Virus record (IMG/VR): IMGVR_UViG_3300045988_074390
Direction: 5' to 3' (one strand)
From: a virus
Length of the DNA stretch: 15,398 bases
Of this stretch, positions 1 through 15,398 are shown in pieces. Made by a program: the position numbers and the translations under genes. The notes below the pieces were generated by a model. That model saw only the letters and a list, made by a program, of their open reading frames with translations, was not told the origin of the DNA and did no database searches. Every line of letters starts with the position of its first letter. Position 1 is the stretch's first letter.

Positions 1-110
1 GAGAGGGCTTTCGTTATTCCCAATGAGAACACGTCCCCCATTTGATTAAAAAAGCACGAAAAAATACTTGACAAATAATCTGACCTGTGGTATTATAATT
101 ATAGAAACAA
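1..110. repeat. Left inverted terminal repeat (110 bp, perfect)
   Basis: Bases 1-110 are the exact reverse complement of 15289-15398. Identity breaks at 111 (g, versus t on the other arm). The repeat starts at the first base of the window, as expected for a terminal-protein-capped linear genome. Confidence 0.97.
68..99 (+). promoter_or_regulatory. Early promoter inside the left ITR
   Basis: TTGACA (68-73), 17-nt spacer, then TGG-TATTAT (88-96, extended -10) overlapping TATAAT (94-99). An A-rich tract lies upstream. The first gene's AAGGAGGA SD lies about 30 nt downstream. Confidence 0.7.
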
Positions 111-822: not shown

Positions 823-1533
823 ATGGCTAATAAGCGTATTAAAAAGAAGAAAACAAAAGCGGAGATTATTCAAAAAGAATATTCTCACGAATACACTAAA
901 TATCTAGCACGTGTTAGAAATCAACAAAAACAAGGTGTACAAGTAAAGATAATTAAGCGAGTAAAAAATCCAACGCAAGCTTCAATTGATAGAATTAAAA
1001 AGCAGAGTGCAAAAGAAATACGAAAAAATGCAACGGTTGTTGATATGCTTACTGGCGAGGTTATAACTTCTAATGAATATGGACGTAAACACGCTCTTGA
1101 AAGAAACAGAGTTTTTATAAAATTAACACCGCAAGAACAGGAATATGCTAGAATACAAGGTTATACTACGGTTGAAGAATTGAAAAAGTTACAAAGGACA
1201 GGTATAATAGTTATTGAAGCAACACCTGTATTAGACTATGAAGCTATTATTGACTCGTGGTGCGACTCTTTAGAAAGTTTTGCACCAAAAACAGCACATT
1301 GGTTAAGACAAAAAACAGATGCTTTATTGGCTAATGCGTCAAATAAAGAAAGGGCACTATTTGCATATACATACGCAAAAGAACCAGAAGCATTTCCAAC
1401 AGAGCCATACATGGATAAAGCTACGGTTGACGCTGTGTTTTGGAATATTTTGCAAAGAATGGGCGTTCTTAGTTCTACAGAAGATTTTCAAGAATTTCTA
1501 CAGGAACAAGATATTGTCATTGAGAATGAATAA
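823..1533 (+). CDS. Putative terminal protein (236 aa)
   Basis: The gene lies immediately upstream of the protein-primed polB gene, as in phi29 (gene 3 next to gene 2). The N-terminus is strongly basic (MANKRIKKKKTK...) and the C-terminus is acidic and Ser/Thr-containing (VLSSTEDFQEFLQEQDIVIENE). The size is similar to phi29 TP. The call rests on position and composition only. Confidence 0.6.
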   Translation: MANKRIKKKKTKAEIIQKEYSHEYTKYLARVRNQQKQGVQVKIIKRVKNPTQASIDRIKKQSAKEIRKNATVVDMLTGEVITSNEYGRKHALERNRVFIKLTPQEQEYARIQGYTTVEELKKLQRTGIIVIEATPVLDYEAIIDSWCDSLESFAPKTAHWLRQKTDALLANASNKERALFAYTYAKEPEAFPTEPYMDKATVDAVFWNILQRMGVLSSTEDFQEFLQEQDIVIENE

Positions 1534-1549: not shown

Positions 1550-3442
1550 ATGCCACGAAAAAAGCAAATAACCTTTTGGGCTTGTGACTTTGAGACAACG
1601 GTATGGGGTGAAAAAGTAGAGCAAGAAAAAGGTAAAAAACAAGACAGTACAGAAGTATGGAGTGGGGCTGATGTGGCTTTATATGACAACACCGAAACTG
1701 TAACAATAACTCATTCGATAAGAGATTTTTTAAACAGGTTTTTGACAATGAAAGGCAATAATATATTGTACTTTCATAACCTCGCTTTTGACGGTTCATT
1801 CATCGTTGATTTTCTGTTAAAAGAGGGTTGGCGTTGGGTGCACTGTAAAGATAAAGAAATGAAATCAAAAGAATTTCAAACCTGTATATCCGATATGGGC
1901 TCATGGTACTGGATTAAATTAAAATGGAATAAGACTTTTTTAGAGATTAGGAACTCGTTGAAGCTTATGCCGTCTTCATTGAAAAATATAGGGAAATCAT
2001 TTGGCACAAAGCACCAAAAATTAGACATGGAATATACTGGTGAAAGATACGCGTATTGCGATATCTCAGATAGCGAGAAAAAATATATTGAAAATGATGT
2101 GTTAGTGTTAAAAGAAGCTCTTGAAATGATGTTTAATGAAAAACATGATAAACTAACTATAGGCTCGTGTTGCCTATCAGAATTCAAAGGCTTTTACGAA
2201 AATAAACAATATGATAAGTTGTTTCCCGATATCAGAGAAGATTATCTTGATGAATCAATCACAGGCGTATGGAATCAGTGGGACTATGTTCATAAATCAT
2301 ATCACGGTGGTTGGTGCTATGTAAATCCTCAATACGCGCATACGGTAGTGGGTTGGGGTTTAGTGTTAGACGTAAATTCTCTGTACCCGTCCATGATGCA
2401 TAGCATCAGTGGTAACAAATATCCATTTGGGCACGGGGAATATCATAGGGGAGCGCCACCCGATGAACTTATAAGCTCTACTAATAAATATTTTTTTATC
2501 CGTTTCAATTGTCGTTTTCAACTTAAAAAAGGAGCGTTCCCATGGCTTCATATTAGACAGAGTGCATTATATAAAGCCAATGAAAATTTATATAGTTCGA
2601 ACGTCAGATATAGAGGTGAATATTATCGCTATTATCGCGATATTGACGGACAGATGCATGACACTAATATTACTCTCACTATGACTTGCACAGACTGGGA
2701 GTTGTTCCAAGAAACTTATGATATATACGACTTGGTTATATATGATTATATATGGTTTTACGCTAGAGAGGGGTTTTTTGATGAATACATAGATAAATAC
2801 GGAGAAGAAAAGAGAACCTCAAAAGGTTTTAAAAGGCAGAAAGCGAAGCTCTTTTTAAATAATCTTTACGGAAAATTTGCCATGTCGGATAATTCCTCGT
2901 ATAAAGAGCCTTATCTTGACGAAGATGGAATTATTAGATTTATCTTGCACGAGGAACATGAGAAGAAAGTCGGCTATATTCCTATAGGTAGTGCTATTAC
3001 TTCATATGCCATGAATTTTACAATCCGTCATGCTATGGCAAATTATGACAGATTTTGTTATGCTGACACGGATTCCATACATTTGATTGGACTAGATAAA
3101 GCAAATCTGGTTGTAGAGCACCCGACGAATTTTTGTTGTTGGAAATGCGAGAGTACATTTGATTTTGCTTATTATGAACGTCAGAAAACTTATGCAGAGC
3201 ATATAGTTGAAGAGAATCACAAGCCTTGTGAGCCTTATCTTGACATTAAAGCGTGTGGCATGAGTAGCCAAGCCAAGCAAAAATTTATTGAAGAGGGAAA
3301 AAATATTTCAGAGTTATCTCAAGGTCTGAATATGGAGTCTTGCAACTTAAAGGCAGAGCGCGTGAAAGGTGGTATCGTATTAAGAAATAAAGACTTTAAA
3401 ATTCACGCTCAAAAAGATAAAAAATTATTATATAATACTTGA
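1550..3442 (+). CDS. Protein-primed family B DNA polymerase (630 aa)
   Basis: All polB motifs are visible. Exo I: ACDFETT. Exo II: FHNLAFDGSFI. Exo III: YIENDVLVL. Motif A: LDVNSLYPSMM. Motif B: KAKLFLNNLYGKF. Motif C: YADTDSIH. KxY: RQKTYAE. Insertions between the motifs are consistent with TPR1/TPR2 of phi29-type enzymes. Confidence 0.97.
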   Translation: MPRKKQITFWACDFETTVWGEKVEQEKGKKQDSTEVWSGADVALYDNTETVTITHSIRDFLNRFLTMKGNNILYFHNLAFDGSFIVDFLLKEGWRWVHCKDKEMKSKEFQTCISDMGSWYWIKLKWNKTFLEIRNSLKLMPSSLKNIGKSFGTKHQKLDMEYTGERYAYCDISDSEKKYIENDVLVLKEALEMMFNEKHDKLTIGSCCLSEFKGFYENKQYDKLFPDIREDYLDESITGVWNQWDYVHKSYHGGWCYVNPQYAHTVVGWGLVLDVNSLYPSMMHSISGNKYPFGHGEYHRGAPPDELISSTNKYFFIRFNCRFQLKKGAFPWLHIRQSALYKANENLYSSNVRYRGEYYRYYRDIDGQMHDTNITLTMTCTDWELFQETYDIYDLVIYDYIWFYAREGFFDEYIDKYGEEKRTSKGFKRQKAKLFLNNLYGKFAMSDNSSYKEPYLDEDGIIRFILHEEHEKKVGYIPIGSAITSYAMNFTIRHAMANYDRFCYADTDSIHLIGLDKANLVVEHPTNFCCWKCESTFDFAYYERQKTYAEHIVEENHKPCEPYLDIKACGMSSQAKQKFIEEGKNISELSQGLNMESCNLKAERVKGGIVLRNKDFKIHAQKDKKLLYNT

Positions 3443-3470
3443 CTATATTTTAGCGTCGTGTTATTATAAT
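3439..3470 (+). promoter_or_regulatory. Early-type promoter, copy A of a duplicated promoter
   Basis: TTGACT (3439-3444, overlapping the polymerase stop codon), 17-nt spacer, then TGT-TATTAT (3459-3467) overlapping TATAAT (3465-3470). The architecture and ACTTGAC core match the ITR promoters. Confidence 0.65.
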
Positions 3471-3506
3471 AATGTAATAAATAAAGTAGAAAAAGGAGAA
3501 ACAAAG

Positions 3507-3695
3507 ATGGGTAAAAAAATTGAATATCCGTTAAACAGCTTGTACGGGGTAAGCTCAATGTCACATAGTAGTAATGTAAGAACTGACACAAATTTAAAAA
3601 ACGCTGAGATTACGGCTAAACTTATTACTATTCGTGATGGTTTTTTATATGCTGATACAGATAGTATATATGTAAGAGATTTAGATAAAAAATAA
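3507..3695 (+). CDS. 62-aa ORF retaining polB motif B-like (PLNSLYG) and motif C (YADTDSIYV); either a polymerase palm-fragment microprotein or a gene remnant
   Basis: It has its own SD (AAGGAG, 8-nt spacer) and its own promoter. The protein aligns by eye with resident polymerase residues ~431-520, with an internal deletion: LNNLYGKFAMSDNSS vs LNSLYGVSSMSHSS, AITS vs EITA, YADTDSIHLIGLDKA vs YADTDSIYVRDLDKK. The DNA is not a recent copy of the resident gene. Confidence 0.5.
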   Translation: MGKKIEYPLNSLYGVSSMSHSSNVRTDTNLKNAEITAKLITIRDGFLYADTDSIYVRDLDKK

Positions 3696-3712
3696 AAATT
3701 ATAACATAACAC

Positions 3713-3744
3713 TTGACTACATTTAATTGTTGTGTTATTATAAT
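3713..3744 (+). promoter_or_regulatory. Early-type promoter, copy B of the duplicated promoter
   Basis: TTGACT (3713-3718), 17-nt spacer, then TGT-TATTAT (3733-3741) overlapping TATAAT (3739-3744). The roughly 48-nt stretch 3711-3758 is an imperfect direct repeat of 3437-3487. Confidence 0.65.
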
Positions 3745-3810
3745 GTAATAAATAAAACATATTACATTGCAATTCACACTCAAAGAAACAGAAAAAAGGA
3801 GGAAAACAAG

Positions 3811-4110
3811 ATGTTTACAAGGACATTAGTCACAGCGGAGGTTTCTGTAGAAAGAATCTACAAGGACAAAGAGACAGGTGAAATCAAGAAAGATTGCTTT
3901 GAAGAGAAATTGTCAAACTGTAAGACAAGGGATAAAGCGGAAATCTTGATTGAAAAGCAGTACAAGGGAGACATTGTTTCCATATTAGACATTAAGTTTA
4001 AAGTGGAAAGACGCACAATGACAGAAGAGCAGTTTTTACTTAATTCAGACGTCAAGAACGAAAAAATTGTTACCGAAGCAGAGTTGCAGGACATGAAAAA
4101 GGAAGATTAA
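3811..4110 (+). CDS. Hypothetical early protein (99 aa); possible dsDNA-binding (p6-like) replication accessory protein, by size and position only
   Basis: The ATG at 3811 is preceded by AAGGAGGA. The longer ORF starting at 3727 would begin inside the promoter and has no SD. The protein is charged with an acidic C-terminus. No recognisable motif was found. Confidence 0.6.
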   Translation: MFTRTLVTAEVSVERIYKDKETGEIKKDCFEEKLSNCKTRDKAEILIEKQYKGDIVSILDIKFKVERRTMTEEQFLLNSDVKNEKIVTEAELQDMKKED

Positions 4111-4552: not shown

Positions 4553-4561
4553 ATAAAATAA

Positions 4562-4579
4562 ATGTTTCACGTGAAACAT
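4562..4579. promoter_or_regulatory. Perfect 18-bp palindrome ATGTTTCACGTGAAACAT, copy 1 (putative operator)
   Basis: Exact palindrome with a CACGTG core. It lies between the early terminator and the ATPase gene and overlaps the upstream in-frame ATG at 4578. Confidence 0.6.
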
Positions 4580-4595
4580 GAATGGAGGTGCTAAC

Positions 4596-5642
4596 ATGAT
4601 TGATGATGGTTATTATCATTGTGAGCGATTATTAACTATGAAAGATAAATACGGGAATACACCTGATATTTTTATTGTGGACGGCAACAGAACAGCGGGT
4701 AAAAGTTACTCTATTAAGTGTAGACAAGTCTCGGATTTTTTAAAAGATAAATACAGACCCGAAAATCAGTTTATCTATTTGTACCGCAATGTTGTTGATA
4801 TGAAGAACTGTGCCGACACTTATTTTGGAGATATTGCGGAAAAATTTGACGGTTATGTCATGACAGAAAAAAGTTTGATGCGTGGCGCGTTGGTGCAGTT
4901 ATTTATCAATGAAGAGCCATGCGGTTATTGTTTAGCTTTGTCGGTTGCGAGAAAGTATAAAAAAATGCGTGGGTTATTCGTCAATATCCGTTCTGTATTT
5001 TTTGACGAATATCAAGACGAAGATAATATATATTTGCCAAACGAAGTAAATAAATTACTGTCGTTACTTACAACTATCAGTTCGGGACATGGTAAACAGC
5101 ATAGGAGAGTTATGCTATATATGGCATCGAATACAGTCTCTTTGTTAAACCCTTACTATAGCGTGTTTGGTATCAATAAAATGTTAAAGAGAGACACCAA
5201 ATTTTTACGTGGTGATGGTTGGGTGTTTGAAAGAACTTATAATGAAAGCGCCTCAACAGCGTATAAGGAAAGTGCTATAGCAAGAGCTTTTCGTGGTGCT
5301 GAATACAACGAGTACGCCAGTGAAAACAAATATCTAAATGACAATGAATGTCTGATTGGGAAACCATCAGGGCAGTCACGTTATATTTGTACAATTAAGT
5401 ACAATGATAATCTATATAATGTAAGAAAATACGATGTGTGTCTATACGTGTCAACAGGTGCAGATGATAGTTTTCCTACCCGTATATGTTTTACAAAAAC
5501 CGATGTTATAGACAATACTGCTATTCGTGTCAACTCGACTCATTATATCGTTACGATGTTACGGGAATACTTTAACAGAGGTTTACTTTTGTTTGAAAAT
5601 TTGGAATGTAAGAACATGATATTTGATGTCATATCTTTTTAA
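4596..5642 (+). CDS. DNA encapsidation (packaging) ATPase, phi29 gp16-like
   Basis: Walker A is DGNRTAGKS and Walker B is SVFFDEYQDE. Other gp16-like blocks are present: QFIYLYR, YLPNEVNKLLSLL, ASNTVSLLNPYY. The start is set at ATG 4596, which has SD GGAGGTG 5 nt upstream. ATG 4578 has no SD and sits inside the palindrome. Confidence 0.9.
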   Translation: MIDDGYYHCERLLTMKDKYGNTPDIFIVDGNRTAGKSYSIKCRQVSDFLKDKYRPENQFIYLYRNVVDMKNCADTYFGDIAEKFDGYVMTEKSLMRGALVQLFINEEPCGYCLALSVARKYKKMRGLFVNIRSVFFDEYQDEDNIYLPNEVNKLLSLLTTISSGHGKQHRRVMLYMASNTVSLLNPYYSVFGINKMLKRDTKFLRGDGWVFERTYNESASTAYKESAIARAFRGAEYNEYASENKYLNDNECLIGKPSGQSRYICTIKYNDNLYNVRKYDVCLYVSTGADDSFPTRICFTKTDVIDNTAIRVNSTHYIVTMLREYFNRGLLLFENLECKNMIFDVISF

Positions 5643-5659
5643 TGTTTCACGTGAAACAT
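5642..5659. promoter_or_regulatory. Perfect 18-bp palindrome, copy 2 (20 bp with flanks 5641-5660)
   Basis: It starts on the last base of the ATPase stop codon and abuts or overlaps the -35 box of the 5659 promoter. Confidence 0.6.
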
Positions 5660-5690
5660 TGACATTTTAAATAATATATGATATCATAAT
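5659..5690 (+). promoter_or_regulatory. Early-type promoter firing into the 254-bp non-coding gap
   Basis: TTGACA (5659-5664), 17-nt spacer, then TGA-TATCAT (5679-5687) overlapping CATAAT (5685-5690). No SD-preceded ORF lies downstream before the 5825-5842 hairpin. Confidence 0.6.
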
Positions 5691-5808
5691 ATCGTACCCA
5701 AAATAATACGGGCATTGTAATTGATATACACGCACATAGACAAGTAGTCTGATATCAATTTTTGGCTTTGCGTTCCCTTTGATTCGATTATTTTGTAACG
5801 TACACAAA

Positions 5809-5826
5809 ATGTTTCACGCGAACAAT
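5809..5826. promoter_or_regulatory. Degenerate palindrome copy (15/18) in tandem with copy 3
   Basis: ATGTTTCACGCGAACAAT overlaps the perfect copy at 5825-5842 by 2 nt. Confidence 0.5.
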
Positions 5827-5842
5827 GTTTCACGTGAAACAT
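5825..5842. promoter_or_regulatory. Perfect 18-bp palindrome, copy 3 (20 bp with flanks); possible terminator hairpin and/or operator
   Basis: Exact copy followed by TTTTATTT. It ends 5 nt upstream of the -35 box of the lysis/late promoter. Confidence 0.6.
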
Positions 5843-5847
5843 TTTTA

Positions 5848-7131: not shown

Positions 7132-7132
7132 A

Positions 7133-7150
7133 ATGTTTCACGTGAAACAT
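7133..7150. promoter_or_regulatory. Perfect 18-bp palindrome, copy 4 (24-bp perfect palindrome 7130-7153)
   Basis: It lies in the 55-nt gap between the endolysin and tail hydrolase genes, directly before the AAGGAGGG SD of 7168. No -35/-10 pair is visible here. Confidence 0.6.
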
Positions 7151-7167
7151 TTTAAGGAGGGTAGCAA

Positions 7168-14927: not shown

Positions 14928-14940
14928 GAGTAAATCTTTA

Positions 14941-14976
14941 ATACTTAAACCCTCCGCAATAGGAGGGTTTAAGTAT
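14941..14976. terminator. Bidirectional intrinsic terminator between convergent genes
   Basis: A 15-bp perfect stem ATACTTAAACCCTCC (14941-14955) / GGAGGGTTTAAGTAT (14962-14976) has a 6-nt loop GCAATA. Flanking sequence is T/A-rich on both sides. Confidence 0.8.
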
Positions 14977-15257
14977 TAATCTATTAATTCTATCAAATTA
15001 TTATAATCATTCCAATAATACAAATCGCCATTATACGTCACCAAAAAATCTTTATTTGATGTATTATCTCGCCCCTCTAATAAATAATATTTACATTCAA
15101 CAATCTTATTATTAATAATATCAACATGTGTACCATAACATACAGCATTTTCTTTTAAATAATGAATGAAATCTTTCTTTGTTTTTTCTTTCATTAATTT
15201 TACAGTTTCCTTTTCAAAACTAAACCATCTAATTATATTTCGTTTTTTAAACCTCAT
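14976..15257 (-). CDS. Hypothetical right-end early protein (93 aa), the only leftward gene
   Basis: SD AAGGAGGA lies 6 nt upstream of the ATG on the minus strand. It is driven by the right-ITR promoter. No recognisable motif was found. Confidence 0.75.
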   Translation of the reverse strand: MRFKKRNIIRWFSFEKETVKLMKEKTKKDFIHYLKENAVCYGTHVDIINNKIVECKYYLLEGRDNTSNKDFLVTYNGDLYYWNDYNNLIELID

Positions 15258-15288: not shown

Positions 15289-15398
15289 TTGTTTCTATAA
15301 TTATAATACCACAGGTCAGATTATTTGTCAAGTATTTTTTCGTGCTTTTTTAATCAAATGGGGGACGTGTTCTCATTGGGAATAACGAAAGCCCTCTC
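15289..15398. repeat. Right inverted terminal repeat (110 bp, perfect)
   Basis: Exact reverse complement of 1-110, ending at the last base of the window. Confidence 0.97.
15300..15331 (-). promoter_or_regulatory. Early promoter inside the right ITR (mirror of 68-99)
   Basis: The sequence is identical to the left ITR promoter by ITR symmetry. On the minus strand, TTGACA is 15326-15331 and TATTAT is 15303-15308. Confidence 0.7.

Follow-up and report, generated by a model that had tools for sequence, protein, structure and literature searches.

Here we describe ORF62, a 62-amino-acid open reading frame (ORF) situated between the DNA polymerase gene (polB) and a 99-amino-acid gene (p99) in a 15,398-bp virus genome from IMG/VR (record IMGVR_UViG_3300045988_074390), the whole of which is called the window below. 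We lean modestly toward reading ORF62 as a lineage-specific mini-gene that was born by duplication and has been under protein-level constraint only at polymerase active-site residues. This reading is drawn from sequence comparison: the ORF carries remnants of polymerase motifs B and C, it lies between two copies of a promoter-bearing direct repeat, and eight active-site residues are invariant among 16 alleles in which most other codons vary.

ORF62 (3507-3695, plus strand) runs from ATG to TAA and translates to MGKKIEYPLNSLYGVSSMSHSSNVRTDTNLKNAEITAKLITIRDGFLYADTDSIYVRDLDKK. A Shine-Dalgarno (SD) sequence, AAGGAG, is present at 3493-3498, 8 nt upstream of the ATG. An earlier note on this DNA, made from the letters alone, had described an SD-equipped, separately promoted 62-amino-acid ORF after polB, and the ORF, the SD and both promoter copies were located as described. 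A 102-amino-acid antisense ORF (3464-3772, minus strand) was considered at the same place and rejected, being broken in three of the allele classes introduced below (L028, L053 and L181). The features of the region are as follows.

1550-3442, plus strand: polB, the resident protein-primed family-B DNA polymerase gene, 630 amino acids (Pfam PF03175, E = 2e-49)
3413-3484, plus strand: repeat copy 1, with the last polB codons (GATAAAAAA), predicted promoter P1 and the leader start (GTAATAAATAAA) (repeat and promoter scans)
3489-3509, plus strand: predicted site of translation initiation for ORF62 (AGAAAAAGGAGAAACAAAGATG), copied from the corresponding p99 region at 3789-3813 (pairwise alignment)
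3507-3695, plus strand: ORF62, 62 amino acids plus stop, in which a collapsed polB segment (motif B to C-terminus) follows the start codon of p99
3531-3548, plus strand: motif B remnant LNSLYG, amino acids 9-14 of ORF62 (profile alignment)
3648-3665, plus strand: motif C remnant YADTDS, amino acids 48-53 of ORF62 (profile alignment)
3687-3758, plus strand: repeat copy 2, with the ORF62 3' end (GATAAAAAATAA), predicted promoter P2 and the leader start
3759-4110, plus strand: p99 leader, SD (AAGGAGG) and the 99-amino-acid gene p99

The likeness of ORF62 to the polymerase was established by three independent comparisons. BLASTP against the resident polB product, as a single comparison, gave 12 identities in 18 positions at motif C (amino acids 44-61 versus 500-517; E = 4e-5). 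A hidden Markov model (HMM) of 69 related polymerases matches ORF62 and two divergent alleles at motif B (profile positions 430-451) and motif C (490-517), and these are the only positions, out of 628, that ORF62 matches. The two blocks are collinear with motif B (amino acids 435-451) and motif C (amino acids 499-517) of the resident enzyme, in which the motifs read LFLNNLYG (approximately amino acids 434-441) and YADTDS (amino acids 504-509). Between them, about 18 ORF62 residues stand for about 47 polB residues (452-498), and the TPR2-like segment is gone. PHROG 1907, "DNA polymerase," matches amino acids 36-60 (E = 0.0016 against the whole library); this short match is the sole external one. 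A Pfam scan of ORF62 gave no polymerase match and no PF03175 at E values up to 1, and tblastn with ORF62 returned only a chance match at motif C. The best polymerase match of ORF62 is to the phage's own clade, with which it shares the clade-specific GLDK. Divergent alleles resemble polymerases more closely, L028 at motif B (KNKVALNNRYGISAMSNSDY versus KAKLFLNNLYGKFAMSDNSSY) and L053 at motif C (GFCYADTD).

BLASTP, the 69-polymerase HMM and PHROG 1907 thus confirm the proposal of the earlier note that the ORF is a collapsed copy of the polymerase palm, and the two collinear HMM blocks agree with its view that motifs B and C are present and the TPR2-like segment deleted. Nucleotide identity to resident polB is 45% in the motif B block and 65% in the motif C block, in keeping with its statement that this is not a recent tandem duplication. 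Relative to phi29-like protein-primed family-B polymerases (PF03175, PHROG 1907), ORF62 shares the motif B and motif C remnants in the correct order but has 62 amino acids against 630 and is without the 3'-5' exonuclease domain, motif A (DxxSLYP), TPR1, TPR2 and thumb. The peptide cannot polymerize.

The sequences flanking ORF62 are copies of the polB and p99 borders. The ORF62 initiation region AGAAAAAGGAGAAACAAAGATG matches that of p99, AGAAAAAAGGAGGAAAACAAGATG, and the spacer AAACAA(A)G is found only in these two among the ribosome-binding sites of the genome. The direct repeat spans the last polB codons, the promoter and the leader start; in copy 1 there follows a gap of approximately 33 nt, and then the SD, spacer and ATG. 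The repeat core is 81% identical between copies (3413-3470 versus 3687-3744). P1 has its -35 element, TTGACT, at 3439-3444 and a TG-extended -10 element, TATTAT, at 3462-3467, and is assigned a promoter role by consensus match; in P2 the corresponding elements are at 3713-3718 and 3736-3741. The earlier note had placed the ORF between two promoter repeats of ~48 nt; the bracketing stands, but the repeat is longer, reaching from the polB end to the p99 ATG.

Four copies of the pattern ACTTGAC-N14-GTGKTATTATAAT are present in the window (0 expected by chance), at 3437-3470, at 3711-3744 and, pointing inward, once in each of the 110-nt inverted terminal repeats. By a sigma-A-type consensus scan, each copy is a strong match, TTGACT-17-TATTAT with an upstream TG. 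No terminator-like site was detected between 3695 and 3811. The leader after P2 (3744-3775) begins with a short inverted repeat, GTAATA...TATTAC, which is the same in cassette-free, single-promoter genomes. The P1 copy is without this inverted repeat because of the ~33-nt gap, and ORF62 transcripts may therefore escape any control exerted there.

At its 3' end (GATAAAAAATAA), ORF62 is a copy of the polB 3' end in which slippage at AAAAAT makes the stop. The ORF62 C-terminus TTAGATAAAAAATAA (LDKK*) joins polB LDK (515-517) to polB K626 at a GATAAA microhomology, and is accounted for by polB CTAGATAAAGCA (LDKA) and AAAGATAAAAAA (KDKK). The junction partners are polB CTAGATAAA (LDK, amino acids 515-517) and polB GATAAAAAA (DKK, amino acids 624-626), which have GATAAA in common. 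We consider it very probable, given this arrangement, that ORF62 arose when the phage's own polB-p99 junction was partly duplicated. The anatomy suggests a tandem duplication that would have extended from approximately polB codon 425, in the 3' third of the gene, through the promoter to the first codon of p99. The novel junction would have brought the duplicated promoter, SD and ATG of p99 into frame with the part of polB from motif B to the C-terminus. Later deletions would have taken the TPR2-like segment and the thumb, the latter joining LDK (517) to K (626) at GATAAA, and slippage at AAAAAT would then have produced the stop. What may be left of the duplication is the 62 codons between the two promoter copies.

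Under this model the promoter, SD and ATG of ORF62 came with the duplication and therefore provide no independent evidence of function. For this reason the earlier note's argument, that junk would not be expected to have a promoter, an SD and an intact frame, does not hold as stated, the promoter, SD and ATG being duplicated p99 signals. Its idea of a decaying remnant of a polymerase module exchange is upheld as to the remnant but not as to the exchange, since the anatomy fits a partial tandem duplication.

Evidence for constraint comes from the substitution pattern among alleles. Four deep allele classes (window, L028, L053 and L181) differ at 20-34% of nucleotides. All four have an open frame, ATG and SD, and the indels between intact alleles are all multiples of three. 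The fourth class, L181, keeps N, Y, G, GFLYADTD and the open frame at approximately 32% nucleotide divergence. Across 16 alleles, amino acid changes are seen at most of the 62 window codons; the N, Y and G of motif B and the YADTD of motif C are invariant. LN(S/N)xYG and YADTD are present in 16/16 alleles, with E or K at the Lys position and S, G, C, E or I at the Ser position of the polymerase consensus (Kx3NSxYG in motif B, YxDTDS in motif C). Codons with synonymous-only variation are found solely at N, Y and G in motif B and at Y, D and D in motif C. The minimum numbers of synonymous and nonsynonymous events are 7 and 0 at the eight core codons (N, Y, G, YADTD) and 23 and 100 elsewhere (Fisher p = 1.9e-5). 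Neutral simulations using the observed region-specific difference counts retained all eight residues in 0.1-0.9% of runs and an open frame in 11-28%.

Gene conversion from resident polB was rejected as a source of this pattern. Synonymous states in the cassette do not follow the polB of the same genome; the Ala and Thr codons are fixed (GCT and ACA) while those of the polymerases vary; and the ORF62 Ser codon is AGT versus TCN in the polB of the examined close clade. It is probable, judging from the substitution patterns, that ORF62 was translated and selected at its inherited active-site residues during allele diversification. Outside the core residues, the peptide appears to have evolved almost neutrally. 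Because the Ser and Lys positions vary, any retained role is not nucleotide (polymerase) chemistry.

For a population survey, polB served to identify ~62 relatives in IMG/VR, whose polB identity is at least 81%. The ORF62 cassette was present in 7 of the ~62 (~11%). In ~50 (~80%), p99 directly follows polB after a spacer of ~111 nt with a single promoter. Carriers are spread across the polB backbone, their nearest polB neighbors being mostly noncarriers, and the four nearest polB relatives of the window genome are without the cassette. Among six window-class carriers, the cassette is 96-100% identical in nucleotides versus 85-90% for the backbone. Carrier backbones differ at 10-15% of nucleotides, with polB dS (synonymous divergence) of 0.6-1.0 and a ratio of nonsynonymous to synonymous divergence (dN/dS) of 0.03-0.05; for the same genome pairs, dS is 0.03 in ORF62 versus 0.6-0.9 in polB. 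The near identity of the cassette in diverged backbones therefore indicates that it spread recently through homologous recombination. The high-identity tract has different borders in different carrier genomes. The 274-nt unit is an optional cassette, gained and lost by homologous recombination, which would most simply proceed through the conserved flanking promoter sequences.

In a public collection of 5.8 billion proteins, the ORF62 family comprises 27 protein clusters. Every context examined has the order polB, ORF62, p99, a single-stranded DNA-binding protein (SSB)-like gene and the packaging ATPase gene. An exhaustive HMM search of 1.84 billion representative proteins found no ORF62 relatives outside this phage clade. 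Its only long match, the repetitive P0061 (1829 amino acids), was discarded as spurious, as was the cluster-mate P0042, an ABC-type ATPase.

Other cassettes occupy the same site. In L025 (3711-4168), a second type of polB-fragment ORF of 79 amino acids, containing motif C and part of the thumb, lies between two promoter copies and keeps the full p99 leader and the first two codons of p99. The same type was found in five further contigs (among L100-L105, ~2375-2865). Its best match is to a different polB lineage (NKER-type), and it is therefore of independent origin. This type is also decaying: the upstream promoter is gone from one contig and the start codon from another, and a third has two premature stops. 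In L048 (~2809-3696), an insert of 887 nt at the same site encodes a 232-amino-acid DNA methyltransferase (phrog_757, E = 2e-57), behind a diverged promoter copy and with the same right-hand border as the ORF62 cassette. Since alternative cassettes are found at one site, the spacer between polB and p99 is a general, promoter-flanked cassette hot spot.

ORF62 is dispensable and has been repeatedly inactivated. In the local set, five intact alleles were found versus four disrupted ones (A7 to A6, A7 to A8, T6 to T5 and ATG to ACG). Both the T5 frameshift and the ATG-to-ACG change were seen again in assemblies made independently, one of which has 89x coverage. Truncated or frameshifted sequences make up 12 of the 27 protein clusters. 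Contigs with a disrupted ORF62 nearly always have intact copies of polB, p99 and the SSB-like gene. Assembly error was rejected as the cause of the frameshifts on the basis of these intact neighbors and of the recurrence of the lesions in independent samples. One public metagenome allele, P0043, has 41 amino acids, with an in-frame deletion of the whole motif B part and the motif C half kept; collapse by deletion is therefore still under way. Within the window's allele class, the ratio of nonsynonymous to synonymous polymorphism (pN/pS) is 1.7. This class shows no sign of current constraint, and the intact copy here may be on its way out.

A separate observation concerns polB itself. In one lineage represented by three independent assemblies (L027, L084 and L088), polB has TGA at codon 332 in place of the TGG of a conserved Trp332 of this essential enzyme (equivalent to window positions 2543-2545). 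The lineage also has the T5 frameshift in ORF62, plus the A8 frameshift in 2 of 3 assemblies. The polB TGA could mean that the host reads through or recodes TGA, or that these genomes are defective and propagate with helpers.

Several of these observations, and some others, weigh against the reading of ORF62 as a duplication-born gene under selection. Pairwise dN/dS among ORF62 alleles, calculated as NG86, LWL85 and maximum-likelihood (ML) values, has a median of 0.54 (range, 0.27-1.2), compared with ~0.04 for polB. At least one-third of the alleles are frameshifted, truncated or without a start codon, and ~89% of the related genomes do without the cassette. The motif C Ser (DTDS) and the motif B Lys, essential in real polymerases, vary among ORF62 alleles. 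The core-residue test uses 16 mutually recombining alleles, so its events are not fully independent, and one further allele, seen only as protein, has YTDTD. AlphaFold2 on a 17-sequence alignment gave no confident fold, with a mean predicted local distance difference test (pLDDT) score of 47.7. Finally, the duplication model was reconstructed from junction similarities of 20-30 nt in AT-rich sequence. The dN/dS check called for by the earlier note thus gives a high value overall and a nonneutral pattern at the eight motif codons. Absence or disruption of the ORF in relatives, which the same note took as speaking against a function, is part of what was found: both are common, but the motif residues do not change in a neutral manner.

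The main rival is that ORF62 is a neutral recombination scar of the partial polB duplication that never functioned as a protein and whose intact frame in the window is luck. The cassette would persist solely through spread by recombination, at a rate exceeding its loss by deletion and mutation. The rarity of the cassette, the disrupted clusters and further collapse to 41 amino acids, and the frameshift and lost start codon confirmed by independent assemblies all fit this explanation. So do the pN/pS of the window class, a dN/dS of ~0.9-1.0 against the L053 and L181 alleles, the lack of a confident fold, the inheritance of promoter, SD and ATG by duplication and the decay of the second polB-fragment cassette at the same site. 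A scar does not, however, account for eight invariant active-site residues with 7 versus 0 events there against 23 versus 100 elsewhere, residues kept in <1% of neutral simulations, or for a frame that is open, with frame-preserving indels, in four classes differing by 20-34%. In addition, flanking direct repeats should quickly excise neutral DNA from a 15-kb genome. We regard the scar as a rather unlikely explanation, though one to be taken seriously, both for the origin of the intact frame and for the persistence of the cassette.

In another explanation, the extra promoter copy is what is selected and the ORF is a passenger, with two strong tandem promoters raising or retiming transcription of p99, the SSB-like gene and downstream genes. 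A perfect -35 and TG-extended -10 are present in both copies of every carrier, including those with broken ORFs; the stretch from ORF62 to P2 is without a terminator, so P1 transcripts would read into p99; and P1 is without the ~33-nt leader segment found after P2 and could escape leader-based control. This explanation leaves amino acid conservation with synonymous variation at the motif codons unexplained, however, and one L025-type carrier has deleted the upstream promoter but kept the ORF, while most related genomes manage with one promoter. We consider it improbable. That ORF62 is a remnant of a foreign phage's polB left after replacement by the present gene is more improbable still: the fragment does have low nucleotide identity to resident polB and a Ser codon (AGT) that differs from the TCN of close-clade polymerases and recalls the AGY of some more distant lineages, in a group of strongly mosaic genomes, but at the protein level it most resembles polymerases of the clade to which the window belongs, down to the clade-specific GLDK, its junctions reuse the p99 initiation region and the polB 3' end as for an in-place tandem duplication, no polymerase among >150 related loci matches the fragment nucleotides beyond 15-22 nt, and near-neutral divergence like the synonymous divergence of the clade (dS, ~1) suffices for the low identity.

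If ORF62 is, as we favor, a mini-gene constrained at its active-site residues, the consensus signals suggest that transcription from P1 would make it the first cistron of the transcript for the replication genes. The product would be a noncatalytic, probably poorly structured peptide whose retained residues, speculatively, bind something that enters the polymerase cleft. Candidate ligands are the priming loop of the terminal protein, the primer terminus and metal-nucleotide, and the peptide would be a modulator or decoy in early infection. The proposal of an expressed microprotein in the earlier note survives in this form and gains support from the substitution pattern at the motif residues. 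We give rather little credence to the speculation that ORF62 employs its retained cleft residues in binding a partner or ligand of the polymerase active site. We are equally tentative about an active-site mimic that would bind a cleft ligand, or a host factor targeting the cleft, and so tune or protect protein-primed replication. Such a mimic might be carried as an optional, recombination-mobile, fast-evolving cassette, as an anti-defense gene is, an analogy that we likewise hold to be doubtful.

The window is a complete linear genome, with perfect inverted terminal repeats of 110 nt at 1-110 and 15289-15398. The plus-strand order is small early ORFs, a 236-amino-acid ORF, polB, ORF62, p99, a 116-amino-acid ORF, the packaging ATPase gene and the structural genes. 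The 116-amino-acid ORF is the SSB-like gene and has a weak match to phi29 SSB. Further features are as follows.

66-99, plus strand: third predicted promoter copy, in the left inverted terminal repeat
823-1533, plus strand: 236-amino-acid ORF in the terminal-protein position (gene order)
4578-5642, plus strand: phi29 Gp16-type packaging ATPase gene
15300-15333, minus strand: fourth predicted promoter copy, in the right inverted terminal repeat

The resident polB product shares 45% identity with the polymerases of Clostridium phages CS229P and 33% with that of phi29. The nearest GenBank entries are Clostridium symbiosum phages CS229P1-3 (at the 45% polB identity) and human fecal contigs, and megablast of the whole window against GenBank phages gave no match. 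Among species-representative genomes, the sole match was an uncultured Clostridia metagenome-assembled genome. Many close relatives, with polB 81-96% identical, are present in public viromes and metagenomes, almost all from the human gut. An Rfam search of the whole window found no RNA family, including no phi29-type packaging RNA (pRNA), despite the Gp16-type packaging ATPase; the pRNA of this genome must be either too divergent for the Rfam model or absent. The cassette as a known RNA gene was ruled out, as no Rfam family matched.

An early ORF of 64 amino acids at 625-819 contains a DNA-binding domain of the AbrB/MazE type (SpoVT-AbrB; PF04014, E = 2.7e-6). A perfect 20-nt palindrome, AATGTTTCACGTGAAACATT, occurs at 4560-4579, 5641-5660, 5824-5843 and 7132-7151, with related half-sites at 375-396 and 5801-5822; the sites lie 5' of the packaging ATPase gene and at the starts of structural gene blocks. 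The palindrome looks like an operator of a dimeric regulator for an early-to-late switch, and the 64-amino-acid ORF is a candidate transcription regulator, possibly the one that binds it. At the right end, a minus-strand ORF of 93 amino acids (14976-15257), without a known family, converges on a strong hairpin terminator at 14938-14979; the promoter copy in the right-hand terminal repeat would drive it.

Three known systems offer comparisons. A "moron," as reportedly defined by Hendrix and colleagues, is an optional, separately promoted phage gene inserted between two conserved genes. ORF62 is similar in being present in a minority of otherwise collinear genomes, with its own promoter-like element, at a site that also takes alternative cargo (the DNA methyltransferase in L048). 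Unlike morons, its cargo is a fragment of the phage's own essential gene rather than a foreign one, it is without its own terminator and its promoter is a duplicate of that of the neighboring gene. In chimeric partial tandem duplicates, the junction sets the signals and start codon of one gene in frame with the interior of another, and the product then evolves quickly and shrinks. ORF62 shares the capture of signals at a junction, the fast evolution and the shrinkage; unlike the usual chimeric duplicates, it is found in a 15-kb virus, has 62 amino acids and shows constraint on the catalytic motifs of its parent, with the remainder of that enzyme gone. The mitochondrial genomes of fungi and plants contain fragments of plasmid-type protein-primed polB (dpo) genes, which are generally considered nonfunctional relics of integrated foreign plasmids. 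Like ORF62, they are broken pieces of protein-primed family-B polymerases that persist in a small genome; unlike them, ORF62 comes from the resident gene, with expression signals and residue-specific constraint.

When ORF62 is viewed as a pseudogene, frame disruptions accumulate in relatives as they should, but strict neutrality fails at the core motif codons. Literature searches, extended by a term search of a 2024 review on phi29-like phages, turned up no account of ORFs made from polymerase fragments in this group.

If the motif constraint reflects a real activity, ORF62 would be a clear natural case of the birth of a new gene in a 15-kb virus. A duplicated promoter and start codon would have captured part of an essential enzyme, which would then have been cut back to its catalytic motifs and put to a noncatalytic use. 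It would also provide the field of protein-primed replication with a natural 62-amino-acid probe of polymerase-cleft contacts. If the peptide is inert, it is an instructive but ordinary duplication scar. Whatever its function, one promoter-flanked hot spot swaps cassettes through recombination, among them two different polymerase fragments and a methyltransferase, and generates variation in very small gut phages.

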